DNA of 64,000 nucleotides. It comes from an uncultured Bacteroidales bacterium. GTDB taxonomy: Bacteria > Bacteroidota > Bacteroidia > Bacteroidales > UBA4417. The notes under the pieces are model-generated. The model was given only the letters and a program-made list of their open reading frames with translations. It was not told the DNA's origin and did not search any database. The translations under genes and the position numbers were made by a program. The stretch's first letter is position 1. Each line of letters begins with the position of its first letter. Positions 13,384 to 63,626 of this stretch are shown piece by piece. The stretch is from assembly GCA_903879715.1 (NCBI GenBank), contig CAIRMR010000032.1, positions 11,022-75,021 of the forward strand. The letters are read 5' to 3'.

Positions 13384-13830
13384 ATTCCTAATAGGTTCCA
13401 CGAAATAGTCGACCTGTTTGGCTGTATGAATAAAAAACCCTTGACCGATGGCATTGTATTGGTTTAGGTAACGCCTGGTTCGCTAAATAGTACAGCGACT
13501 TTTGCCGGATATTATTTCCTCGGAGTGCCTGACGGAGTAATTGCCACAAACTTTGTTTTTATACCCTCACTTTTAATTTTAATGGCAATTATCCCTTTTT
13601 TCGGCCACTTATCACCATATCCAAATTTCAGTAAAATCATTCATGGCATACTCTGTACCTTTGTTGGATTACTACTGATTACAACCATACATTTTGGAGT
13701 TGAGGGTGTATGGAATCCGTTTACTAAGGCAATAGGCCAGATATCACTTAGCTTATTCTTGTTTAAAGTTAATAGTACCTCGCTTATTGCAGGAGTATTG
13801 GTACTTTCTTTCTTTAATTATGCATGCCGT
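13384..13830 (+). pseudogene. chromate transporter (CHR/ChrA family) remnant, 5'-truncated with an in-frame TAG
   Basis: My translation reads ...KKPLTDGIVLV*VTPGSLNSTATFAGYYFLGVPDGVIATNFVFIPSLLILMAIIPFF...GILCTFVGLLLITT. This fits the ChrA pattern (l.dgialaQ.tPGp...). The TAG at 13465-13467 sits where Gln is expected. There is no start or N-terminal half, and the reading frame runs into the convergent gene. Confidence 0.45.
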
Positions 13831-13839
13831 GATGCCTAT

Positions 13840-14655
13840 TTATTCAATCTTTCCAACCGTAAACACATCAAACCCATTCTCTTTAGCCATCTGCATTGCC
13901 GGTTGATTCTGCATGATGGCTCCGCCCCAAAAATTATGATCATAGCTATGCGGGCTTATAAACCAGCTATCGATATTCATAACGATTTCAATATTACACG
14001 TTTTATTCTCTTCCACAGTAATTGCTGAATTGGGCAGCTTAACGCTGAAATAATTCTGTACAAAAGCATAAATGGAATCCACTTCTATCACATTGCTTTT
14101 GTACAACTGACCGATTCCCATGTGAAAAGCATAGCTCATAATCACATTTTCATTATTCTTCCAGCTTCCGTTAATCATCATGTAGTGATACCCGCCGCCT
14201 AAAATATCAGGCCACATCATATTCACTTCGGGCGGATTAACAAACCGGAACGATTGGTTTTTCTCTTTCGTGATCCCGAACACAAAAGAAATAGAGTCGT
14301 AGACTCCTGTGTCAATATCATCGTACACATCCCAGGTAAGTGTTGAAGGTATATCAATATCCACGTAATGAATATCGGTCCAGTCGCTGATCAGTTTAGT
14401 TGTTCCATCGGCTTTATGAAGAGTAACATCTGATATAAAATACATAATCTGGTTTATCTCATACGGATTTCCGGCAGCGTTTACATATTTCATAATATCC
14501 TTTTCCAGCGGCAATCCATCCACCAGGTGTATAAAACTTAATGAAATATGCCCTGTCGGTTTACCGTCATCAGGGGTATCGTTATTACATGATATATCCA
14601 GGAACAATAAAGTTCCCAGTAGTATCGAAACAAACAAGGCATATTTCATTTTCAT
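13840..14655 (-). CDS. lipoprotein of unknown function next to a TonB-dependent receptor (possibly MbnP-like metal-binding protein)
   Basis: Lipobox FLDISC and a beta-rich sequence. The MbnP assignment is a memory-based guess. Two in-frame ATGs exist (14655 and 14649). Confidence 0.55.
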   Translation of the reverse strand: MKMKYALFVSILLGTLLFLDISCNNDTPDDGKPTGHISLSFIHLVDGLPLEKDIMKYVNAAGNPYEINQIMYFISDVTLHKADGTTKLISDWTDIHYVDIDIPSTLTWDVYDDIDTGVYDSISFVFGITKEKNQSFRFVNPPEVNMMWPDILGGGYHYMMINGSWKNNENVIMSYAFHMGIGQLYKSNVIEVDSIYAFVQNYFSVKLPNSAITVEENKTCNIEIVMNIDSWFISPHSYDHNFWGGAIMQNQPAMQMAKENGFDVFTVGKIE

Positions 14656-14918
14656 GTGTTATTATTTATTAATTCATTGCTTATTTTCAGCGGTATTAAT
14701 GCTTGCTTCGCAGGTATTTTTAACGGGTCACATGGAACTCCATGACAAAATAATATCATCCGCCTGTGAGTCAAAATTGACTGATTTTGTCATGTTCGTT
14801 TCATGTGTTTATTTTTTAATTTTTTACGGGTCACATGGAACTCGCCATGGAAATAATCATCGCTCTGTGAGACAAATTATTGGCATGGCTCGTTTCATAT
14901 GGTGGTTTTTACGGGTCA
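14650..14918 (+). repeat. hairpin mosaic repeat, locus A: long unit 14650-14807, variant unit 14799-14901, truncated unit 14902-14918
   Basis: Near-identical to 46324-46469 and 62925-63184. Units are bounded by TTTCATNTG. Core hairpin is CACATGGAAC..CATGACAAAAT-loop-ATTTTGTCATG..CATGTG. Confidence 0.85.
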
Positions 14919-17039
14919 GATTGATAGATTAAGATTTACAAAAAGCACTCTGCCCGGTTCATATAATTTTTTATTTTCAGGTGAGCCAATAATTTTCCGG
15001 TTCAGATGTTCGTAGTACGAAACATCAAAGATATTATTTACTCCGGCATTAATGTTAATATTCTTACTAAGCTTGTACGCTACCGAAAAATTCATAATCG
15101 AGAATCCCGGTGTTTCAGGCTCATCAAAAGCATCTGATACATGATGCTGTGCAGCTACTAAACGATACGAGACCCTTGGAATAAGTTTGCCATGCAACAA
15201 ACGATAATTTACACTAAGAGTGGTTTCGAATGGAGGTATTTCAGGCAAAGCATCGTTTTTTATTACGATATCGCCAGGAACAACCTGACCAGCTATAAAA
15301 ATGTGTTTAGTTTCCGAAGGAATCTGCCCATAGGTAAGTGCTGCTATCACATTTACGCCAAGTTTATAAGCCTGCGGAGATGTATAGCCCAGCTCGAAAC
15401 CCGTAAAAGTTGCGTTATCAACATTTACGAACTGCTTCACCCCCAGCACTCCAAGAGTTGCAGGCATAATAACCGACGAAGGAAGCATTACAGCTGAAAT
15501 GTAATCCTTCACATACGAATAAAAACCATTTACATACATGGTTCCTAATTTCTTATCAGAGTATGTTAGTGTCAAATCAACTTCGTAGTTTGTCTCCGGT
15601 TTAAGTTGTGGATTACCCAGGTAATCGTAATTATCGTACCCTATGGTGAGTCGTTTAATGTAACGTTCCAGCATATTCGGGCTTCGCGTGCCGCGGGCAA
15701 AAGCTAAAGACACAGAAAGTTTTTCGGTAATTTTACGCGTTAATCCAAGGTTAGCGCTCAGGTTTACAAACTGCGAAGCGGTTTCATTAAAATATTCCAC
15801 ACCGTCTTTAATCAATACCAGGGTATCTTCCGAATCAGCCTTATTAAAATCAACCCGTATGGCTGCATCAAATTTGAATGAATTAAAACTGGTAGTATAA
15901 CCGGCAAACAAGCCCGCATTCCGGATTAAAGCCTTATTCCATAAATTGAATCTAGTGGTCGAAGTAGTTCCCATCATCAGCATAGTCATAGTTCGTACAC
16001 CATCCTTGTAAATATTTTCAAAATCTATACCTGCTGATAAATTCTGATTCTTTATTTTCATGCCCAGGATAGCCTTTCCTCCTGTATTTATAGCATTTAC
16101 ATCAGCAACCATCTGTTTGGCTGACCAGGTAATGCGGTTGCTGTTATCCATCAGGTGGTTAACATTGGTTCTGTAAACCTTAACATCCAGTGTTTTTATT
16201 ACTTCCGAAATATTCCTGGCCGAATAGTCCAAAGACATCATGCGTGTATCATCGCTTTTTTCGTCCATAGTGAGCGCCGGAAACATCACATCCCTGCCAT
16301 GCGACTCGCTGTATGAAAGCAAAACATTCTGCTTCGGGGAAATAGCCCATCCTGCTTTGGCCCCATAATTATACTTTGTAAATGATGTATTATAGGTCGT
16401 TGTTTCACCATCAGTCTTTCCGCTGCTGTAATCGCCATACTTACGATATCCGCCCGATGCGCGGAAATACACTTTACTATTCCCGCCATAAAGCGAGAAA
16501 TATTCCTTGGCCCCATCCCAATTGGTTTCATAGCCAAACATAGCATTTCCATGAATTTCAAATTTCGCGTACGGATGCGGATCTTCAGTCTGCAGATTGA
16601 TTACTCCGCCCAAAGCCGGTCCATAATTCAAAAGGAAAGGTCCTTTCACAAGATTAATCTGTGAAAGCTCTTCTACTTCCACATGTGCCGCAACCGGATC
16701 CATGCGGTTAGGACAGCCGTTTTCGATCTTCATACCGCCATCCATAACGACGTTTAGCTGGCTGAATTTGAAACCGCGAATAACAGGATCAATGGCACCG
16801 CCACCTTTTCGAATACCGGATACGTTAGGAATACTACGCAGGTAGTCCCCCACATCGCGGGTTGAAACTGACTGCATAATTTCTTTTGAAACCTGAGTTG
16901 TTACAAAGGGAGTTCGTTTTAAAAGAGTATCGGTAATTACAACACCCCCAAGCACTATTGTATCGCTAAGATGTTGTGCCCTGATTCCCGCCGCAAACAA
17001 CAGGAAAAAGCTTATGAACAGGTAAATTTTCTTTTTCAT
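14916..17039 (-). CDS. TonB-dependent outer-membrane receptor
   Basis: Signal peptide, plug domain (DTIVLGGVVIT...RGF...), and a long beta-barrel. 707 aa. Confidence 0.85.
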   Translation of the reverse strand: MKKKIYLFISFFLLFAAGIRAQHLSDTIVLGGVVITDTLLKRTPFVTTQVSKEIMQSVSTRDVGDYLRSIPNVSGIRKGGGAIDPVIRGFKFSQLNVVMDGGMKIENGCPNRMDPVAAHVEVEELSQINLVKGPFLLNYGPALGGVINLQTEDPHPYAKFEIHGNAMFGYETNWDGAKEYFSLYGGNSKVYFRASGGYRKYGDYSSGKTDGETTTYNTSFTKYNYGAKAGWAISPKQNVLLSYSESHGRDVMFPALTMDEKSDDTRMMSLDYSARNISEVIKTLDVKVYRTNVNHLMDNSNRITWSAKQMVADVNAINTGGKAILGMKIKNQNLSAGIDFENIYKDGVRTMTMLMMGTTSTTRFNLWNKALIRNAGLFAGYTTSFNSFKFDAAIRVDFNKADSEDTLVLIKDGVEYFNETASQFVNLSANLGLTRKITEKLSVSLAFARGTRSPNMLERYIKRLTIGYDNYDYLGNPQLKPETNYEVDLTLTYSDKKLGTMYVNGFYSYVKDYISAVMLPSSVIMPATLGVLGVKQFVNVDNATFTGFELGYTSPQAYKLGVNVIAALTYGQIPSETKHIFIAGQVVPGDIVIKNDALPEIPPFETTLSVNYRLLHGKLIPRVSYRLVAAQHHVSDAFDEPETPGFSIMNFSVAYKLSKNININAGVNNIFDVSYYEHLNRKIIGSPENKKLYEPGRVLFVNLNLSI

Positions 17040-34700: not shown

Positions 34701-34840
34701 GGTTGAGTTAAAGTATAAAGGTTGAGGGGGAGGTTGAGGTTGAGGTTGAAGTTAAGGTTAAGGTGGAGGTTAAGGTTAAGGTGGAGGTTGAGGTTAAGGT
34801 TTAGGCTTAAACCTCTCAACCTTTAAACTTAACCTTTTTA
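34701..34840. repeat. low-complexity GGTTGAGG/GGTTAAGG word tract followed by reverse-complement words
   Basis: GGTTGAGGGGGAGGTTGAGGTTGAGGTTGAAGTTAAGGTTAAGGTGGAGG... then CTTAAACCTCTCAACCTTTAAACTTAACC. Confidence 0.8.
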
Positions 34841-40660: not shown

Positions 40661-40668
40661 GGAAATAA

Positions 40669-40729
40669 GGGGTTAGGTTTTAGGGGTTAGGTTTTAGGGG
40701 TTAGGTTTTAGGGGTTGGGATTTAGGGGG
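40669..40729. repeat. G-tract repeat (GGGGTTAGGTTTTA)n, telomere-like, potential G-quadruplex former
   Basis: Four GGGG runs and a final GGGGG run at roughly 14-nt spacing, read directly. Confidence 0.8.
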
Positions 40730-40750: not shown

Positions 40751-40915
40751 TTCGCCTTGTCGCTCTTCGCTCAGTCGCTCCTCACCCAATCGCTCTTCGC
40801 CCAGTCGCTCCTCGCCCTTCGCCCAGTCGCTCCTCGCCCTTCGCCCAGTCGCTCCTCGCCCCTCGCCCAGTCGCCCCTCGCCCAGTCACTCTTCCCCTCG
40901 TCAACTCTCACCCCT
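40751..40915. repeat. C-rich word tract (CGCCCAGTCGCTCCTCGCCCTT)n, reverse-complement sense of the GGCGAAGGG word family
   Basis: About 24-bp imperfect tandem units. The tract overlaps the last codons of 40908..42131. Confidence 0.8.
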
Positions 40916-46083: not shown

Positions 46084-46159
46084 TGGAGCGGAAAACGAGA
46101 TTCGAACTCGCGACCCTCAGCTTGGGAAGCTGATGCTCTACCAACTGAGCTACTTCCGC
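46084..46159 (-). tRNA. tRNA-Gly (anticodon CCC), CCA encoded
   Basis: Manual fold: GCGGAAG-TA-GCTC-AGTTGGTA-GAGC-A-TCAGC-TTCCCAA-GCTGA-GGGTC-GCGAG-TTCGAAT-CTCGT-TTTCCGC-T-CCA. 76 nt. Confidence 0.9.
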
Positions 46160-46323: not shown

Positions 46324-46469
46324 TTTCATGTGCTATTATTTATTAATTCATTACTTATTTTCAGCAGTACTAATGCTTGCTTCGCAGGTATTTTTAACGG
46401 GCCACATGGAACTCTCCTGGAATAATCATCCCACTGTGAGACAATTTATTGTCATGTTCGTTTCATCTG
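46324..46469 (+). repeat. hairpin mosaic repeat, locus B (one long-form unit with a diverged hairpin half)
   Basis: The first 87 nt differ from locus A at only 5 positions. Bounded by TTTCATGTG and TTTCATCTG. Confidence 0.85.
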
Positions 46470-46579: not shown

Positions 46580-47332
46580 ATGATATCTGCACTAATTATT
46601 GACGATGAACAACCTGCCAGATATACATTACAGGCCATGCTCAAGCGTTTATTCCCTGATAAACTTAAAGTAATTGATTCGGTGGAATCTGTGAAAGAAG
46701 GTGTTATCTCAATCAATAGACTTCATCCTGACCTTGTTTTCCTTGATATTGAAATGCCTGGAGAAAATGGATTTAAGTTATTCGACTACTTTAACGACGT
46801 TCCGTTTTCGGTAATATTTACAACAGCATATCAGGATTTTGCTATTAATGCGGTAAAAGTAGCCGCTCTTGATTACATTCTGAAACCTATAAATCAAATA
46901 GATCTGCAGGAAGCTATCGCCTTGTATGAGAAGAGACAGGCAAAAGGAATTTCACACGAGCATATCGAAAAGTTTCTAAGCTCATTAAATCCGCTCCCTG
47001 ACCCTAAAGGGAAAGTTGCCCTTCCAACATTTACAGGTTACCAGCTCGAAAATGTGAATTCCCTTATGTACTGTGAAGCGGAACAGAATTATACCAGAAT
47101 ATTCACTGTGCGTGGTGAACCTATCCTTGTTTCAAAACCAATAAGCTACCTTGAGGAAATACTTCCATCTGATATCTTTTTCAGAATACATAAATCTTTT
47201 CTGGTAAATCTGAACTTTATCAAATCTTATAGTCGTTCTGAAGGATTCCAGGTGGTGCTTGACAATGGGACTATTCTGGACGTTGCTACCCGTCGTAATC
47301 AGAAATTCCTGAAAGCGCTTACAGGCAAATAA
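46580..47332 (+). CDS. orphan LytTR-family response regulator
   Basis: Receiver domain (LIIDDEQPAR...DLVFLDIEMPG) plus a LytTR domain (LMYCEAEQNYTRIFT...HKSFLVNLNFI). No adjacent kinase. Confidence 0.85.
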   Translation: MISALIIDDEQPARYTLQAMLKRLFPDKLKVIDSVESVKEGVISINRLHPDLVFLDIEMPGENGFKLFDYFNDVPFSVIFTTAYQDFAINAVKVAALDYILKPINQIDLQEAIALYEKRQAKGISHEHIEKFLSSLNPLPDPKGKVALPTFTGYQLENVNSLMYCEAEQNYTRIFTVRGEPILVSKPISYLEEILPSDIFFRIHKSFLVNLNFIKSYSRSEGFQVVLDNGTILDVATRRNQKFLKALTGK

Positions 47333-49071: not shown

Positions 49072-49080
49072 GTTTTTGTA

Positions 49081-49270
49081 GGAGTTAGGGGTTGGGGATT
49101 AGGATTTGGGGGCGAAGGGGCGATGGGAGAAAGGAGAAAGGCGAAAGGCGAAGAGCGAAGAGCGAAAAGTTAAGTGTAAAGGTGCGAAATTGGGAAACGC
49201 TGAAACAGGAAACGCTGAAACTTGCATTTCGACTCCGCTCAGTGCACGTGAAACATCAAACCCGAAATAA
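49081..49270. repeat. low-complexity purine-rich word tract (GGGGTTAGG-type, then GGCGAAGGG/GCGAAGAGCGAA, then GAAACGCTGAAAC words)
   Basis: Read directly. Fills the whole spacer between 49071 and 49275. Confidence 0.8.
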
Positions 49271-51050: not shown

Positions 51051-51060
51051 GAGAATGTTT

Positions 51061-51230
51061 GATGTTGGAGATCGGAGGTTGGATTTCGGATGTCGGAGGT
51101 TGGATGTCGGATATCAGATGTTGGATATCGGATGTTGGATATCGGATGTTGGAGGTTGTAGGTTGAATGTTGAAACCTGGAACCTGAAACCTGAAATTTC
51201 AGAATTTGGAATTTCAAATGGCAGAAGCGG
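51061..51230. repeat. low-complexity word tract (GGATGTCGGA/GGATATCGGATGTTGGA, then GAAACCTG/TTTCA palindromic words)
   Basis: Read directly. The GTCGGATGTCGGA words recur at 38830-38850. Confidence 0.8.
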
Positions 51231-52581: not shown

Positions 52582-52740
52582 GTTTTTTGAGGGGTTAGGT
52601 TTTTGGGGTTAGGGATTAGGATTTAGTTTCTTTTGAGATCAAGTGTTCAAATGCTTCGCGTTTAAGGGTTCAATGCTGCGCGTTCAAGGGTTCCAGGTTT
52701 CGGAGATCTATTGCAACTTTTAATCACTTTAAACAGTTTT

Positions 52741-52846
52741 GAACAATCTTGAACAACGTTGAACTATTTAGAACAATATTGAACAACTTTGAACAACATT
52801 GAACAACTTTTAACAACATTGAACAACTTTTAACAATTTTGAACTT
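52741..52846. repeat. about 11 tandem copies of a 10-bp unit (GAACAACNTT)
   Basis: gaacaatctt gaacaacgtt gaactattta gaacaatatt gaacaacttt gaacaacatt gaacaacttt taacaacatt gaacaacttt taacaatttt gaac. Confidence 0.85.
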
Positions 52847-58477: not shown

Positions 58478-60859
58478 TTAAAATTTTCTGGATTTCGAAA
58501 GTGCTGAAACCGACAAACTTGCAAAAGTTACAACCGAGATGGAACTCAACGGCATTAATATAGCTGCAAACACCGGCGACAATAATCCTTGTATCGCAAA
58601 CGTAAGACCAACAATGTTATAAAGGAATGAAATCAAGTAACTGGCATATACTATATTCATGGCTGATTTTGAAAACCTTAGATAATCCTGCAGCCTTCCG
58701 AATTTTGAGGATGACAAAATAGCATCACAAGCCGGCGAAAAATGATAGATATCATCAGCAATTGTAATCCCGATATCCGCTTTCAACAATGCACCGGCAT
58801 CATTTAAACCATCACCGATCATAATTACATTACGTCCATTTGCCTTCAATTCCGTAATATATTCAAGTTTATCGACCGGAGTCTGGTTGAAATGCAATTG
58901 GGTGTCAGGAGAGAAGTATGTTCTCAGGTTTGCCTCTTCCGAATCATTATCGCCGGTTAAAAGATGAAGCTGCATGTGTTTCATTCCGGCTATCACTTCC
59001 GGTAATCCTTCGCGGTAATGGTTTTCCATTTTAAAAAAGCCGCGGAGTTTATTGTCTATTGAAACATATACAGATGATATTTTATTTTCTTCAGAAACAT
59101 CATTACCTGCAATAAACCGCCGTGACCCAAGCATGACGCGATGTCCGTCAACAAATCCATTTATGCCAAGACCACTTATTTCTTTGTAGTTATCAACAGC
59201 AAGTAGGGCGCTGACCGGTAGCCATTCACTCACCATTATTGAAAGTGGATGAGTTGAATTCCGGGCGACTGATCGTATAAACTGCTCTTCACCGGCACTT
59301 AAGGCAATGCCTTCCCACCCGATATTCATTGTCCGGGAATGTGTGAGCGTGCCGGTTTTATCAAACACTACTGTATCGGCATGGGTAAGCTTTTCGATCA
59401 CTTCTGTATTTTTAATATAAAAACCATTGCGCCCGAAAACCCGCATTACATTGCCAAAAGTAAAAGGGATTGTAAGTGACAAGGCACACGGACAAGCAAC
59501 AATCAGGATAGAAGCAAATACGTAAACAGCCTTTCCAAAATCAGAAAACGACCAAAAAACACCGGCACTGAATGCAATGGCAAGAATGACAAGTGTAAAA
59601 TAATGGCTTACTCTGGTAATAACGGATTGCATCTGAATTCCGGCTTCTTCACCCAGTTTATCCTCGTTCCATAATTGTGTGAGATAACTTTGTGCAACTT
59701 CTTTTTCGACCCTGAGCCTGATTGCTGCGCCCGACTGCTTTCCTCCTGCAAAAACAAAATCCCCTGCTTTTTTCGAAACCGGGATCGATTCGCCGGTTAC
59801 AAAACTGTAATCAATATTTCCTTCGCCATCTGTTAAAATAGAATCTACAGGAATAAGTTCGCCATTCCTCACAAGGATAATATCCCCTGTTTTAAGGTCT
59901 TTAAGTTGAACAAAATCTTCCTTTCCATCAAGCAAACGTGTTACGGCTATCGGGAAATAAGATCGGTAATCGCGGTCAAACGATAGAGATTGATACGTTC
60001 GGCTTTGGTACCAGCGACCAATAAGCATAAAAAAGAGCAAACCTGCCAGGGAGTCCATATACCCGGTACCTGCGCCACTGAAAATTTCATAGGTGCTTTC
60101 GAGAAATAAGGAAATAATTCCAATTGATAAAGGCAGATCAATATTAATTATCTTTTTACGAAGGCTTTTAAATGCTGACAAAAAGAAATCGCTGCTGCAA
60201 AATGTTATTACAGGTAATGCCAAAACAAAAGAGACTATACCGAATGTTCCTGCCATCAGTTCATCAATGGCTTCACCTCCAGGAAGGTAATCGGGAAAAC
60301 TAAGCAGCATTATATTCCCGAATGCAAACCCGGCAACTCCGATCTTCATGATCATACGGCGGTTCGCTTTCTGGTGATCGTCCTTCTTTTCCTTGTTATA
60401 ACTGATATCCGGAATGTAATGGATGGTATGTAATAGTTCAATTACCTGCCTGAGGCTGATATCACTTTCGCGGAAGGTTATACTTACTTCTTTGCGGACG
60501 AAATTCACATGTGAATGCATTATTCCCTTATGTATTGTATTCAGGTTTTCAAGAAGCCATATACATGAACTGCAGTGTATTGCAGGAATAAAAAGGTTAA
60601 CTCGGGAGATTCCTCCATCCGAAAAATCCAGGAGTTTCAAACGGATTTCATCGTTATCGAGGTATGCATAGCGGGTTCCGGAAGTATTTTCCTGATCAAG
60701 GCGGATACCAGGTGTCGGCATCATATCGTAATACCTGTCCAGTTTCTTTTCCGAAAGAATCTGGAACACCATGCTGCAACCATTGCAACAGAATGTTTTA
60801 TCGTCCCATATTACCGGATTTTTACCGCAATCCTGCCCGCAATGTATGCATTCAGCCAT
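58478..60859 (-). CDS. ccoI: heavy-metal (copper) translocating P-type ATPase, CcoI/FixI type
   Basis: N-terminal Cys-rich domain (CIHCGQDC...CCNGC), CPC motif (VACPCAL), DKTGTLT, GDGLNDAG. Confidence 0.9.
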   Translation of the reverse strand: MAECIHCGQDCGKNPVIWDDKTFCCNGCSMVFQILSEKKLDRYYDMMPTPGIRLDQENTSGTRYAYLDNDEIRLKLLDFSDGGISRVNLFIPAIHCSSCIWLLENLNTIHKGIMHSHVNFVRKEVSITFRESDISLRQVIELLHTIHYIPDISYNKEKKDDHQKANRRMIMKIGVAGFAFGNIMLLSFPDYLPGGEAIDELMAGTFGIVSFVLALPVITFCSSDFFLSAFKSLRKKIINIDLPLSIGIISLFLESTYEIFSGAGTGYMDSLAGLLFFMLIGRWYQSRTYQSLSFDRDYRSYFPIAVTRLLDGKEDFVQLKDLKTGDIILVRNGELIPVDSILTDGEGNIDYSFVTGESIPVSKKAGDFVFAGGKQSGAAIRLRVEKEVAQSYLTQLWNEDKLGEEAGIQMQSVITRVSHYFTLVILAIAFSAGVFWSFSDFGKAVYVFASILIVACPCALSLTIPFTFGNVMRVFGRNGFYIKNTEVIEKLTHADTVVFDKTGTLTHSRTMNIGWEGIALSAGEEQFIRSVARNSTHPLSIMVSEWLPVSALLAVDNYKEISGLGINGFVDGHRVMLGSRRFIAGNDVSEENKISSVYVSIDNKLRGFFKMENHYREGLPEVIAGMKHMQLHLLTGDNDSEEANLRTYFSPDTQLHFNQTPVDKLEYITELKANGRNVIMIGDGLNDAGALLKADIGITIADDIYHFSPACDAILSSSKFGRLQDYLRFSKSAMNIVYASYLISFLYNIVGLTFAIQGLLSPVFAAILMPLSSISVVTFASLSVSALSKSRKF

Positions 60860-60909
60860 TTTTCAATTTTAATAGGGTCGCAAAAATAGACAAAATTGTC
60901 CGTTTTTCC

Positions 60910-61247
60910 GTAGAGACGCAATGTTTGCGTCTCGTGGTATAATGAACAATTTGTAAAGAGACGCAATGTTTGCGTCTCGTGGTATAATGAACAATTTGTA
61001 AAGAGACGCAATGTTTGCGTCTCGTGGTATAATGAACAATTTGTAAAGAGACGCAATGTTTGCGTCTCGTGGATAATGAACAATTTGTAAAGAGACGCAA
61101 TGTTTGCGTCTCGTGGTATAATGAACAATTTGTAAAGAGACGCAATGTTTGCGTCTCGTGGTATAATGAACAATTTGTATAGAGACGCAATGTTTGCGTC
61201 TCCAGATATAATGAACAATTTGTAAAGAGACGCAATGTTTGCGTCTC
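60910..61247. repeat. tandem array: 8 copies of a 45-bp unit, each with the perfect palindrome GAGACGCAA-TGT-TTGCGTCTC
   Basis: Hairpin starts at 60912, 60957, 61002, 61047, 61091, 61136, 61181 and 61226. The period is 45 bp, with one 44-bp unit. A degenerate ninth hairpin lies at 61269-61295. Confidence 0.95.
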
Positions 61248-61302
61248 TAAGGCGATCCTACATTATTCGTAGAGACACGAGCATCGCGTCTCTACGGTAT
61301 GG

Positions 61303-61337
61303 CAAAAAAAAACCTCCGGAAAGGAGGTTTTTTTTAT
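61303..61337 (-). terminator. intrinsic (bidirectional) terminator after pfkA
   Basis: AAAAAAAAACCTCC-GGAA-GGAGGTTTTTTTTT. Confidence 0.85.
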
Positions 61338-61356: not shown

Positions 61357-62472
61357 TTATTCTTCCAACGCAATCTGATCATTTCCGAAACTGATTCCCA
61401 GACCACGGGCTGTTTTCATGAGAGCGGTATCCAGTGTAACCAGGTTTGGTTTCTGAACAGCATCCTCAAGGGTAACGCTCGTAATATAAGGATGCTGGTA
61501 CGAAACCATGCGTCCGAATTCTTCATTCATAACCATTTCAAAAGCCTTTACTCCGAATTGTGAAGCCAGAACCCGGTCATACGCATTTGGGATACCACCA
61601 CGCTGGAGGTGGCCTAATACTGTAACCCTGATATCATGCTCACATCCCAGCGTTTTGAGATCATCTTCGAGTTTGAATCCGATACCACCCAGGCGAACAT
61701 GTTCATAACCAACTTCAGTACTCTTCTCACCAATGATTTCGCCATCTTTTGGTTTTGCACCTTCAGCAATAACAATAATTGCGAAACCGCGCCCTTTATG
61801 GAAACGGGCATTTACTTTCGAAAGTACTTCGTTGGTATCATAAGGAATTTCGGGGATCAGGCAAATTTCAGCACCACCGGCAACAGCCGCATTTAATGCA
61901 ATCCAGCCCGCGTCACGTCCCATTACTTCGAGAATGAATACACGGTTGTGACTGGCAGCTGTTGTTACAAGTTTATCAACAGCCTCAGTGGCAATTTCAA
62001 TAGCTGTTTGAAAACCGAAGGTAGAATCCGTTGCAGAAAGGTCATTATCAATGGTTTTAGGAACGCCAATAATATTCAGCCCTTGTTTGAAGAGTCTCTG
62101 CGAAATACGTTGAGATCCGTCGCCTCCAATGCTGATAACTGCATCAATACCCAGGTACGACATTTTACGGATCATTTCATCCGAGCGATCCACATATTCC
62201 CATTCGCCTTTTTTATTTTTTACCGGCCAGGCATAAGGTCCCCCTTTATTGGTAGTCTGAATAATTGTACCGCCCTGGTAATGAATTCCGGCAACTTTCT
62301 CCGAATCCAAAATCATAAGTTCGGTAGGCTCGTTCAGAATTCCATCGAAAGCTTTTATACTTCCTAATACTTCCCAATCAGTTTCTTGCGAAGCACGCTT
62401 AACAATTGCCCTGATAACTGCATTTAACCCGGGGCAATCGCCTCCGCCGGTAAGAACCATTACTCTTTTCAT
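61357..62472 (-). CDS. pfkA: ATP-dependent 6-phosphofructokinase
   Basis: LTGGGDCPGLNAVIRA, IGGDGSQ, PKTIDNDL and MGRDAGW motifs. Confidence 0.9.
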   Translation of the reverse strand: MKRVMVLTGGGDCPGLNAVIRAIVKRASQETDWEVLGSIKAFDGILNEPTELMILDSEKVAGIHYQGGTIIQTTNKGGPYAWPVKNKKGEWEYVDRSDEMIRKMSYLGIDAVISIGGDGSQRISQRLFKQGLNIIGVPKTIDNDLSATDSTFGFQTAIEIATEAVDKLVTTAASHNRVFILEVMGRDAGWIALNAAVAGGAEICLIPEIPYDTNEVLSKVNARFHKGRGFAIIVIAEGAKPKDGEIIGEKSTEVGYEHVRLGGIGFKLEDDLKTLGCEHDIRVTVLGHLQRGGIPNAYDRVLASQFGVKAFEMVMNEEFGRMVSYQHPYITSVTLEDAVQKPNLVTLDTALMKTARGLGISFGNDQIALEE

Positions 62473-62924
62473 ATGTTTATATTATTGAAAGCCAAATGTT
62501 TATGGCGCTATTTTACAATTTTCAAAAATCGGTGCAAAGTTATAAAAAATTAATTGCTAATTGCTAATTAATAAAATAAGACTCACTTACAATGAAATTT
62601 AATTATATCGTTTGAAATACAGATGGTTAAAGTAATAAGATGCAAATAAATCAAACTATCTGAAAACACATTACATTTTTAAACAAATGATTTAAAGACC
62701 GTTAAGAACAATCTAAGTATTCTACTGAAATATATTAGAAAAAGCAGAAACGAATTCAGGGAAAAACTTAGAGCTGGTTTGTGAGCATCTTGATAATATT
62801 TTCAATCCTATCACAATAAAAACCACATCATATACATTATCAATACTTTAAACATTTTTAGTAAATGAAGGTAAAACTGGATGAAGAGGTCAAACCAACT
62901 ATTCCATAACATCAAATTCAGCAA

Positions 62925-63184
62925 TTTCATGTGTTATTATTTATTTTTTTACGGGTCACATGGAACTCCATGACAAAATAATATCATCCGCCTGTGAGTC
63001 AAAATTGGTAGATTTTGTCATGTTCGTTTCATGTGTTATTATTTATTAATTCATTGCTTATTTTCAGCGGTATTAATGCTTGCTTCGCAGGTATTTTTAA
63101 CGGGTCACATGGAACTTCATGACAAAATAATATCATCCGCCTGTGAGTCAAAATTGGTAGATCTTGTCATGTTCGTTTCATTTG
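62925..63184 (+). repeat. hairpin mosaic repeat, locus C: short unit 62925-63035 plus long unit 63027-63184
   Basis: The short unit lacks the 47-nt AATTCATTGCTTATTTTCAGCGGTATTAATGCTTGCTTCGCAGGTA insert. Otherwise near-identical to locus A. Confidence 0.9.
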
Positions 63185-63626
63185 AAGTTAAATTAGCTTC
63201 GCTAATCAGCTTATCTCGGGATGGTTGTGTAAACCAGAATATAACGATGCCAACAAACGGCCAGATGAGCAATACATACAATCCCAATAAAAGAAACATT
63301 ACGATGGCAAGAAAAGACGGAGCTTCAAAAAGTGCTCCCTGAAGAATATTTAATTCACGCCATGCGGCGAGTTTTTTATCAAGAGATGGTAATGATTGGA
63401 TAAAAGTGAGTTTTCGGGGAATTATGGATCTGTATGCAATAAAAATAACACCTGTCAGCACAATTAAAACAATAACAAATGGTGTTTTTTCATTAGACTT
63501 TAATTCTCTACCCATAAAAGCACCTGCCGAAGAATTCAGAAATAATGCCATCAGAAAAAATAATAGAATGCCCATTGCAAGTGCAAAATAAACGATGCGC
63601 AGAGATTTGAGGTAATTTGAGTTCAT
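63117..63626 (-). CDS. hypothetical 4-TM membrane protein, with the last ~22 codons encoded by the repeat element
   Basis: Hydrophobic helices. The 3' end (63117-63184) lies inside repeat unit C2. Confidence 0.5.
   Translation of the reverse strand: MNSNYLKSLRIVYFALAMGILLFFLMALFLNSSAGAFMGRELKSNEKTPFVIVLIVLTGVIFIAYRSIIPRKLTFIQSLPSLDKKLAAWRELNILQGALFEAPSFLAIVMFLLLGLYVLLIWPFVGIVIFWFTQPSRDKLISEANLTSNETNMTRSTNFDSQADDIILS

Follow-up and report, generated by a model that had tools for sequence, protein, structure and literature searches.

A dispersed hairpin repeat of Bacteroidota inserts at TTTCAT and carries a guide complementary to both of its ends

INTRODUCTION

The closest described systems to the repeat reported here are the REP sequences and the IS200/IS605 family. 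In the former, a hairpin that has a presumed guide motif 5' of its foot is cleaved beside the hairpin by an enzyme supplied in trans, TnpA(REP), also termed RAYT (PMC8266576). In IS608, a member of the IS200/IS605 family, a guide located 5' of the foot of the subterminal hairpin reads the cleavage sites, and the ends become joined in an RE-LE junction (PMC3201880).

The repeat was analyzed in a 64,000-nucleotide stretch of DNA from an uncultured Bacteroidales bacterium (the window) and at loci elsewhere. Like REP and BIME sequences, it is a high-copy, protein-less hairpin repeat found mostly between genes in operons, the foot of its hairpin is immediately preceded, on the 5' side, by a conserved motif that is a presumed guide for cleavage beside the hairpin, and it is a mosaic with optional modules in which a single hairpin would serve as the substrate of an enzyme acting in trans. 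It differs from them in that GTAG is not present and CASATGGAAY is found instead, in that its units are 95 to 110 nt rather than 20 to 40 nt, and in that the units form direct head-to-tail arrays with one orientation per locus, whereas REP sequences form inverted doublets (BIME/REPIN). Further differences are a strict (T)TTCAT insertion site, with insertion demonstrated, a guide that forms a 9- to 10-bp duplex with both ends, and the absence of any RAYT gene from the window and the loci examined.

RESULTS

Repeat units within the window

Three loci in the window were found to contain five full units and one truncated unit of the same element, all on the + strand, as the initial annotation had reported. 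Each unit is bounded by the direct 9-mer TTTCATNTG that it had described, which is common to adjoining units. The 47-nt insert said to distinguish long units (158 nt) from short ones (111 nt) is real and is present at 14670 to 14716 and at 63047 to 63093, but the two sizes given include the shared 9-mer.

The first locus comprises units A, B, and C. Unit A (14650 to 14798) is long and has a type I hairpin; its left junction, TTTCAT/GTG (the slash marking the junction), lies at 14650 to 14658, optional module X at 14670 to 14716, the guide CACATGGAAC at 14729 to 14738, and the hairpin at 14741 to 14794, with R being G at 14798. Unit B (14799 to 14892) is a short variant with a type II hairpin, GCCATG..CATGGC, at 14844 to 14889; its left junction, again TTTCAT/GTG, is at 14799 to 14807 and its guide at 14832 to 14841. 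Unit C (14893 to about 14921) is the truncated third unit, TTTCAT ATG..TTTTTACGGGT-CAGAT, which has lost the hairpin half and the terminal TTTCAT via a deletion between two CAGAT pentamers, as seen from the orthologous junctions in L039 and L041 to L043. One metagenome contig (L030) connects array A+B to another locus, and a chimeric assembly at the repeat is possible.

Unit D, the only unit of the second locus, is long, with module X and a degenerate hairpin, and extends from 46324 to 46460, or to 46466 with its right TTTCAT (46461 to 46466); the guide is at 46403 to 46412. It is flanked on one side by a tRNA gene (46087 to 46159, − strand) and on the other by a LytTR regulator gene (46580 to 47332, + strand), and its sequence is identical in two other assemblies (L031 and L032). 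The third locus consists of unit E (62925 to 63026; short, type I; guide at 62957 to 62966) and unit F (63027 to 63175, or to 63181 with the terminal TTTCAT at 63176 to 63181; long, type I), the latter with module X at 63047 to 63093 and the guide at 63106 to 63115. No further copies were detected in the window by nhmmer or with a covariance model, and the reverse-strand matches to this model were palindrome echoes only.

Orthologous empty sites prove insertion

Orthologous empty sites at two of the three window loci prove that the element was inserted. An empty site has one ATGAAA hexamer, and a filled site has one hexamer on each side of the array. At the third locus, array E+F splits the 3' end of a gene for a 158-aa membrane protein, leaving the 5' 149 codons at 63182 to 63626 (− strand) and displacing the last eight codons and stop (..IAEFDVME-stop) to 62899 to 62924 (− strand). 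The interrupted ORF now runs 20 codons into unit F, with its stop at 63117. When the flanks are joined with one ATGAAA between them, they again encode a 158-aa protein with NEIAEFDVME at its end, exactly the length and C terminus found in more than 100 homologues, and in the orthologue L037 the DNA of the gene is uninterrupted.

At the first locus, the orthologues have the junction ..ATCTG-ATGAAA-ATGAAA-TATGCC and no element. The left TTTCAT of unit A adjoins the start codon of an MbnP lipoprotein gene (13840 to 14655, − strand) and corresponds to the upstream ATG-AAA of an ancestral MKMK start, the second ATGAAA of which is at 14644 to 14649. The sequence TTTCATTTTCAT at 14644 to 14655 had been taken for a possible target site duplication. 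It is not one, because uninterrupted orthologues already have ATGAAAATGAAA; we rejected it both as a duplication and as a footprint, since it is ancestral sequence, and it is rare elsewhere. Nor are the units always intergenic, as had been stated: array E+F interrupts a gene, unit A abuts the MbnP start, and the stop codon of a TonB receptor gene (14916 to 14918) is inside unit C.

Inverting the left end, GTGTTATT.., does not give the right end, ..GTTCGTTTCAT, and direct reading of the window and of the other loci revealed no terminal inverted repeats. The element is therefore not a classical, DDE transposase-derived MITE, the second identity initially proposed; in addition, its flanks always repeat one particular hexamer rather than an arbitrary sequence.

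Distribution, size, and coding content

The element extends beyond the three window loci. Pattern scans located the element at 29 loci in about 12 Bacteroidales/Lentimicrobiaceae MAGs; among metagenome contigs, at least 120 carry it, and 126 distinct copies outside the window were recognized in unrelated contexts and species, far beyond chance. Only two matches were to viral contigs, so the element is not phage-borne. A literature search covering the core sequence, TTTCAT targets, and MITEs at start codons returned nothing relevant, and none of the papers in the library searched contains the core sequence. The element appears to be undescribed as well as widespread in Bacteroidota.

That the repeats reflect local duplication, chance, or an assembly artefact without mobility would fit the joining of array A+B to a different locus in L030. 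We give this explanation practically no credence: the window loci are reproduced at 100% in independent assemblies (L031, L032, and L035), and it is already refuted by the two orthologous empty sites and by the distribution of the 126 copies.

The element is about 95 to 110 nt long, reaching about 190 nt with optional modules, and unusually long units were explained by extra hairpin modules or truncation, with no cargo. It encodes no protein. Coding potential was considered and rejected, as the frames are not conserved: on the gene strand they give MKRT-stop in type I and a peptide of 12 to 13 aa in type II, and the subtypes differ by indels whose lengths are not divisible by three. The initial impression that this is not a named RNA family was upheld, with no Rfam match at the gathering score in the window except one tRNA and none at an E value of ≤1 in eight loci.

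The element inserts at (T)TTCAT, mostly on gene starts

Insertion at 5'-(T)TTCAT-3' has a fixed orientation. On the left, the hexamer reads NTTCAT, N being T in 90% of copies, and the right end is TTTCAT in 97% and TTTCAC in the remainder, the extraction rule itself having required TTTCA[TC]. Beyond a mild xTG after the hexamer, no other flank preference was found around it. Because the two hexamers, left and right, are not the same in 10% of copies, a 6-bp duplication is ruled out; a 5-bp TTCAT duplication and an element-borne right end fit the data alike. An own TTTCAT at the right end accounts for the hexamer on both sides, and since the terminal TTTCAT of a resident copy is itself a target, it also accounts for the head-to-tail arrays.

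TTTCAT is the reverse complement of ATG-AAA, a common gene start, so that when the element inserts at a gene start, the start codon is restored and now follows a new A-rich leader. An overlapping upstream gene can still obtain its TGA stop from the first ATGAAA. Of 118 insertions, 79 (67%) are exactly on the ATG-AAA start of a gene, and gene starts make up 13% of all ATGAAA hexamers and 42% of the nondisruptive ones (P = 5e-8). A model in which any ATGAAA is a target and intragenic insertions are purged fitted the first 32 arrays, but it was rejected as it under-predicts gene-start insertions in the larger set. A co-directional upstream gene ends within 200 nt in 73 of 105 insertions, indicating that most copies are transcribed within operons.

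One internal guide is complementary to both ends

A 10-nt guide, CA-S'-ATGGAA-Y, forms the functional core of the element and immediately precedes the foot of the variable hairpin on its 5' side. Its sequence complements both the left junction, TTTCAT/S-TG, and the right end, R-TTTCAT/, and the whole guide is complementary to the joined right-left junction, R-TTTCAT-S-TG. ATGGAA(C/T) at this position is invariant in all 108 aligned copies. S and S' are complementary in 120 of 126 copies (64 C:G, 56 G:C), as are Y and R in 119 of 126 (69 T:A, 50 C:G). The covariation score of the two pairs was 0.186, compared with 0.073 ± 0.007 in shuffles, and none of 500 shuffles reached it. They do not simply mark two linked haplotypes, because all eight combinations with an intervening marker occur. 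In mixed arrays (L006, L009, L012, and L055), each S pairs with the guide of its own unit, and the units are therefore discrete. The complementarity of CASATGGAAY to both ends, the site-specific insertion, and the relation of TTTCAT to ATGAAA were three features that the initial annotation had missed.

Hairpin structure and strand asymmetry

Every unit had been thought to fold as an interrupted hairpin. This held for four of the five full window units (z scores of −2.4 to −4.1) but not for unit D (z = +1.1). The hairpin is kept in 121 diverse copies, with a mean z score of −3.3 (−2.4 for the interior alone) and a median interior identity of 63%. Short units have a single hairpin; that of optional module X is unrelated in sequence. 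The supposed compensatory stem changes between units A and B proved to be subfamily differences with indels, and covariation in the type II hairpin among 20 B-type copies was not above that in shuffles. The strong covariation sits at two pairs outside these stem changes, S:S' and Y:R, and is visible only in the larger sample. With these pairs and the 121 hairpins, the broader proposal of selection on structure rather than recent duplication was substantiated.

The + strand is the more stable in 102 of 121 copies (P = 3e-17), and this asymmetry and the G.T pairs suit RNA as well as single-stranded DNA. Based on a GC skew of −0.047, the structured + strand in the window is probably the leading-strand template, a weak indication from only three loci at which orientation is tied to gene direction.

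We therefore considered whether an RNA function keeps the structure while the sequence spreads as a mobile module. The RNA might be a cis-acting leader or intercistronic element of operon mRNA, in which UUCCAUSUG pairs with a decoy AUGAAA or with the true start codon, or it might be an antisense small RNA over the start codon. The high proportion of insertions at start codons, the likely transcription of most copies within operons, a guide that amounts to an anti-start sequence, optional hairpin modules placed in loops as in structured RNAs, and G.U-type pairs that stabilize one strand more are all in line with such a function. However, it is the antisense strand relative to the flanking gene that is the more stable, and in the mRNA-sense copy the hexamer helix always contains an A.C mismatch. 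By eye, no Bacteroidota-type promoter (TTTG..TAnnTTTG) could be recognized on the + strand; a terminator scan detected no terminator-like site, and matches to sigma-70 promoters carry no information in this phylum. The lack of an Rfam match, the nonconserved peptide frames, and the persistence of degenerate and truncated copies (D and C) also count against an RNA, and RNA function alone leaves the exact hexamer-to-hexamer insertion unexplained. We consider it improbable.

Search for a mobilizing enzyme

Pfam analysis of 51 window ORFs identified no transposase or recombinase. Likewise, all-versus-all ORF clustering of 29 and then 149 loci, with Pfam analysis of the recurrent families, revealed no transposase recurring near the approximately 150 loci and no autonomous copy near the loci clustered, and neither the window nor loci totaling about 1 Mb contained a tnpA(REP) gene flanked by repeats. 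The recurrent neighbors were only common Bacteroidota families, namely histidine kinases, AraC regulators, TonB receptors, SusD, ABC/MacB transporters, ECF sigma/FecR, efflux proteins, and glycosidases.

In integrons, attC sites lie downstream of cassette ORFs, and their R'' (RYYYAAC) and R' (GTTRRRY) core sites are separated from the L boxes by about 5 nt. The element could likewise be the substrate of a tyrosine recombinase that acts on a folded hairpin, as with attC or as XerCD does with CTX-phage attP(+). On a circular single strand, the stem CA-S'-ATGGAA-Y / R-TTTCAT-S-TG would then mimic a duplex site and recombine with genomic TTTCAT, the shared hexamer being the overlap region and the units and arrays resembling empty cassettes. 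Indeed, the paired site is an ordinary duplex, continuous only across the joined right-left junction, the donor and target hexamers are identical, and the head-to-tail arrays have a core that is common to the target and the adjoining units. As in attC and attP(+), the hairpin is imperfect, conserved in structure and variable in sequence, with a two-tier stem, a small unpaired internal loop between the tiers, and a bulged base in some subtypes. In the C:G subfamily (ATGGAAC/GTTTCAT, 50 copies), one arm ends in ..AAC and the other starts with GTT.., resembling R''/R', but the T:A subfamily (ATGGAAT/ATTTCAT, 69 copies) has AAT/ATT and does not conform to the attC consensus. Moreover, the spacers are 0 to 3 nt rather than about 5 nt, and the copies are single and dispersed at gene starts, not in cassette arrays downstream of cassette ORFs and beside intI. 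A 5- to 6-bp target without conserved flanking arms is atypical for tyrosine recombinases, and no recombinase gene was recurrent near the copies in the 29 and then 149 loci. We regard this route as unlikely.

The bridge RNAs known so far span about 180 nt and contain two internal loops. A recombinase supplied in trans, whether RNA-guided (bridge-RNA-like, IS110-type) or of another kind, that reads target and donor via the guide of the element would account for one guide being complementary to the donor junction and the target core alike, for the absence of terminal inverted repeats, and for the lack of any duplication demonstrable beyond the core. The element, however, is about 100 nt with a single guide, no promoter is evident, and there was no DEDD transposase near any copy examined, making this explanation very unlikely.

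DISCUSSION

The features of the element were compared with those of the IS200/IS605 family. As in that family and in its non-autonomous derivatives, the PATEs, terminal inverted repeats are absent. As in IS200/IS605, insertion is 3' of a specific AT-rich target of 4 to 5 nt that is kept outside the left end, and the hairpin foot is preceded by a guide that pairs with the putative cleavage sites, of which the right one would be inside the element, 3' of the hairpin, with a joined RE-LE junction involved. In contrast, a single hairpin and guide would serve both ends here, whereas each IS200/IS605 end has its own, and a right end equal to the target is unusual for that family. The 9- to 10-bp canonical antiparallel duplex also differs from the 4-nt, partly noncanonical pairing of IS608. 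The window orientation is opposite to the lagging-template preference (a weak observation at three loci), and no tnpA or tnpB is associated with it in the window or near the loci examined.

Other short repeats are less similar. ERIC/IRU sequences and the Neisseria Correia elements are also dispersed repeats of about 100 to 150 nt, with long and short forms that differ by an internal block, and are often near gene starts and co-transcribed, but they end in inverted repeats and make a short duplication, for example of TA, neither of which is found here. MIRUs likewise occur as direct tandem units between the cistrons of operons, where the stop and start codons of the adjoining genes overlap the ends of the units. 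Small in-frame ORFs have been described in MIRUs, whereas the frames here are not conserved between subtypes and insertion is site specific.

On balance, we favor, at slightly better than even confidence, a small non-autonomous Bacteroidota insertion element mobilized in trans, whose guide-paired ends are cut by an enzyme supplied from elsewhere. A non-autonomous mobile element of the REP/Y1-transposase kind is the best available analogy; to this extent the REP/BIME-like identity first suggested stands, though not in its GTAG motif or inverted doublets. We suggest that the + strand would act as folded single-stranded DNA and that a host- or IS-encoded enzyme, most plausibly a nuclease of the HUH/Y1 type, would bind the hairpin and cut after TTTCAT at whichever end pairs with the guide. 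This use of hairpin, guide, and cleavage site is modeled on IS200/IS605 TnpA and the REP-associated TnpA(REP). The cut strand might then move via an excised circle or a junction intermediate.

A more far-reaching and distinctly tentative possibility is that the element represents a new class of guide-directed single-strand mobile element, a DNA of ~100 nt in which one internal 10-nt guide reads both ends or the circle junction. The enzyme, acting in trans, would belong to a family not yet linked to such substrates, the target could in principle be reprogrammed through the guide, and evolution would have led the element to insert at start codons and to restore them in doing so.

If the favored reading of a trans-mobilized insertion element is true, the element would be the Bacteroidota equivalent of REP and PATE elements, with rules that are unusually easy to read: its fixed 5- to 6-nt target coincides with the commonest gene start of the phylum, start codons and overlapping stop codons are regenerated, and covariation reveals the pairing of the guide with both ends. 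The element would then account for assembly breaks and for spurious small ORFs in the MAGs of these lineages and would serve as a marker for strain-level insertion polymorphism. It would point to an enzyme recognizing a hairpin plus a guide, which would be relevant to work on IS200/IS605, TnpB, and HUH nucleases and to programmable tools. In its hosts, it may rewire the 5' leaders of many genes for secreted proteins and transporters.

Distribution of the repeat

The repeat was found at three loci in the window, as the initial annotation had described, with every copy on the + strand. Locus 1 comprises unit A (14650-14798, type I hairpin), unit B (14799-14892, type II hairpin) and a truncated unit C (14893 to ~14921); locus 2 is unit D alone (46324-46460, type II hairpin); and locus 3 comprises units E (62925-63026) and F (63027-63175), both with type I hairpins. 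TTTCATNTG bounds each unit and is common to neighboring units, and a 47-nt block distinguishes the long form from the short one. The interrupted hairpin proposed earlier was present in four of the five full units but not in unit D, the fold of which is degenerate. Neither nhmmer nor a covariance model detected additional copies in the 64-kb window, and the sole match in an Rfam scan of the window was a tRNA at 46087-46159.

A search pattern of 21 nt from the conserved core matched 29 loci, spread over ~12 species-level MAGs of Bacteroidales/Lentimicrobiaceae; many of these loci are at contig ends, as expected since repeats break assemblies. A slightly degenerate pattern matched at least 120 metagenome contigs; the matches listed all appeared to be genuine copies and, judging by record names, included lake and sediment samples. 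Only two viral contigs matched. The extracted set contained 126 distinct elements at 118 solo sites or arrays. The window loci were base-for-base identical in independent assemblies (L031, L032 and L035). Contig L030 (JGI 3300045670) is identical to window positions 13584-14898, through units A and B, and then runs into a complete type I unit adjoining a Peptidase_C25 gene, with the flank seen in another element-bearing contig, L008; this junction represents either inter-locus recombination between arrays or chimeric assembly at the repeat. Two different species-level MAGs (L005 and L011) share an insertion at one particular gene start; in L005, the third codon of that gene is now a stop. Some insertions are thus old and inherited. 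A spurious 92-aa ORF arises from the array at 14654-14932 (+), 39-aa genes were called by pipelines inside the element in L036 and in a 59-kb contig, and contigs L001, L008, L014, L033, L034 and L036 end within it. The family thus impairs both the assembly and the annotation of MAGs.

Other repeats in the window

A 45-nt tandem repeat (7.5 copies, 97% alike; 60867-61337, core 60912-61247), unrelated to the mobile hairpin repeat, carries a hairpin, GAGACGCAA..TTGCGTCTC, in each copy and fills the spacer between a phosphofructokinase gene (61357-62472, -) and a P-type ATPase gene (58478-60859, -). G-rich telomere-like repeats, (AGGTTG)n, (AGGGGTTAGGTTTT)n and relatives, lie at 34719-34805, 40668-40728, 49079-49107 and 52586-52652. 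Three of the four runs are 5-40 nt upstream of a minus-strand gene start, a similar run adjoins a gene start in contig L022, and together they seem to form a second family of intergenic repeats close to gene starts. Intergenic short tandem repeats at 40759-40887, 51055-51172 and 52714-52844 include C-rich 15/22-nt units, (GATGTTGGATATCG)n and (CAACTTTGAA)13. The spacers of this genome are unusually repeat-rich.

Element architecture and covariation

On the + strand, the element consists of (T)TTCAT-S-TG, ~12 AT-rich nt, TTTTTA(AA/CG)GGT, the guide CA-S'-ATGGAA-Y, a variable hairpin and R-TTTCAT, where S, S', Y and R are variable bases. An optional 47-nt module X follows the AT-rich stretch, and an optional module Y of 40-130 nt lies between ATGGAAY and the hairpin, of which there are at least three subtypes. 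The element has neither terminal inverted repeats nor coding capacity. In the copy at L010:7000-7074, a GC-rich mini-hairpin (CCCCGCCAAGACGGGG) replaces the apical part of the hairpin and may represent a different small element nested within this copy; L068, L089 and L155 have GC-rich inserts of a similar kind.

The stem change between units A and B, previously interpreted as compensatory, proved to be a subfamily difference with indels; among type II copies (n=20) the stems were nearly invariant and covariation was no higher than in shuffles. The large sample revealed two clean covarying pairs on either side of an invariant ATGGAA/TTTCAT pairing. S:S' was complementary in 120 of 126 copies (64 C:G, 56 G:C) and Y:R in 119 of 126 (69 T:A, 50 C:G). 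Overall, 98.3% were paired, and the covariation score of 0.186 (0.073 +/- 0.007 in shuffles) was reached by 0 of 500 shuffles, with slid controls near zero. All eight combinations of the S:S' and Y:R states with a marker between S and S' were present, ruling out two linked haplotypes behind the covariation. In mixed-state arrays (L006, L009, L012 and L055), each S fits the guide in the unit that follows on its right, which places the unit boundary after TTTCAT. These data establish the unit boundary and the pairing constraints of the element.

The variable hairpin is retained despite a median interior identity of only 63% (z of -3.3 for the hairpin as a whole and -2.4 for just its interior). 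The + strand was more stable than its complement in 102 of 121 copies (p 3e-17), and the apical motif TCAY-N3-10-KKTG occurred in 79 of 121, compared with 6.5 in shuffles.

Insertion, target and genomic placement

At locus 3, the last 20 codons of a 169-aa ORF (63117-63626, -) lie in unit F. When the flanks are joined around one ATGAAA, they encode a 158-aa protein ending NEIAEFDVME, a length and C terminus that exactly match >100 homologs, and an 85%-identical ortholog reads ..TCAAACGAAATTGCTGAA.. without interruption. In orthologs of locus 1, the TonB-receptor stop overlaps the MbnP start (..ATCTG-ATGAAA-ATGAAA-TATGCC), and in the window three units are inserted at the first ATGAAA of that junction. 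The MKMK doublet at 14644-14655, initially likened to a target-site duplication, is therefore ancestral and was not made by insertion. Unit C is the third unit minus CAGATGGAA..hairpin..TTTCAT, lost by deletion between its own CAGAT and that of the flank. Insertion of the element, its target and its orientation are established.

The left hexamer reads NTTCAT (N is T in 90%), and the right end is TTTCAT in 97% of copies (extraction required TTTCA[TC]). This difference indicates that the flanking hexamers are not a 6-bp duplication; the right hexamer is either element-borne or a duplication of TTCAT at most. The flanks showed no preference besides a mild xTG. TTTCAT reads ATG-AAA on the complementary strand, and at 79 of 118 sites the left hexamer is the exact start, on that strand, of a long ORF, in most cases one with a signal peptide. 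In the same DNA, gene starts account for 13% of all ATGAAA and 42% of those not inside genes, and the enrichment holds after allowing for lost intragenic insertions (p ~5e-8); a smaller first sample had agreed with a simple model of such loss. A co-directional upstream gene ends <200 nt away at 73 of 105 evaluable sites; its stop is the TGA within the first ATGAAA in 5 sites, and the upstream ORF extends into the element in 3. The typical copy therefore occupies an operon spacer directly before the downstream start codon, which is preserved behind the element's own A-rich leader. An RNA role is unlikely, whether the element served as an antisense RNA or as an operon leader containing an anti-start sequence; the version acting within the mRNA is disfavored because it is the antisense strand that is stable, and the gene-sense copy has an invariant A.C mismatch.

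The minus strand of type I units (14747-14774, 62975-63002 and 63124-63151) carries a gene-sense TTTG-N19-TATTTTG, which falls a single base short of the -33/-7 promoter consensus of Bacteroidota, TTTG..TAnnTTTG. Judged from this motif, type I units might be a candidate promoter source for the downstream gene.

Proposed mechanism and relation to known systems

CA-S'-ATGGAA-Y on one strand complements both R-TTTCAT at the right end and TTTCAT-S-TG at the left, and its partner is continuous only with the right end joined to the left, in a circle or tandem junction. Without joined ends, the guide would pair with each end in turn. In IS608, the cleavage sites are recognized by guide bases located 5' of the subterminal hairpin foot. 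The left site lies outside the element and serves as the target, the right one lies within it, 3' of the hairpin, and the excised element is a single-strand circle whose ends abut (PMC3201880). The same guide, hairpin and cleavage logic has been proposed for REP with GTAG (PMC8266576). Since the guide-end pairing shares IS608 logic, we commit to a single-strand hairpin-and-guide element mobilized in trans, a reading we consider somewhat better than even. The active form would be single-stranded DNA, with the cut predicted to fall after TTTCAT, a circle as the probable intermediate and an HUH/Y1 enzyme presumably doing the work. No mobilizing enzyme was found among the ORFs of the window or the recurrent gene families near ~150 element loci, which counts against an IS200/IS605 reading. 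Folded-hairpin recombination by a tyrosine recombinase, integron- or CTX-like, is doubtful, and the T:A subfamily differs from integron attC in lacking the attC consensus; we give very little credence to a bridge-RNA-like system.

In its working, the trans-mobilized element is most like REP/TnpA(REP) and the PATEs of IS200/IS605. It lacks the GTAG and inverted doublets of REP, however, and differs from IS200/IS605, PATEs included, in having one hairpin rather than two, a long, canonical guide duplex and a right end identical to the target. The window GC skew, by which the structured strand would be the leading-strand template, also runs weakly counter to an IS200/IS605 reading. Unlike a classical MITE, it has no TIRs. 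No Rfam family matched the element in the window or in eight further loci scanned, and its core sequence was not found in the literature searched. We rate it as belonging among the protein-less hairpin repeats mobilized in trans, as an apparently undescribed variant whose enzyme and mode of action stand a fair chance of being novel.
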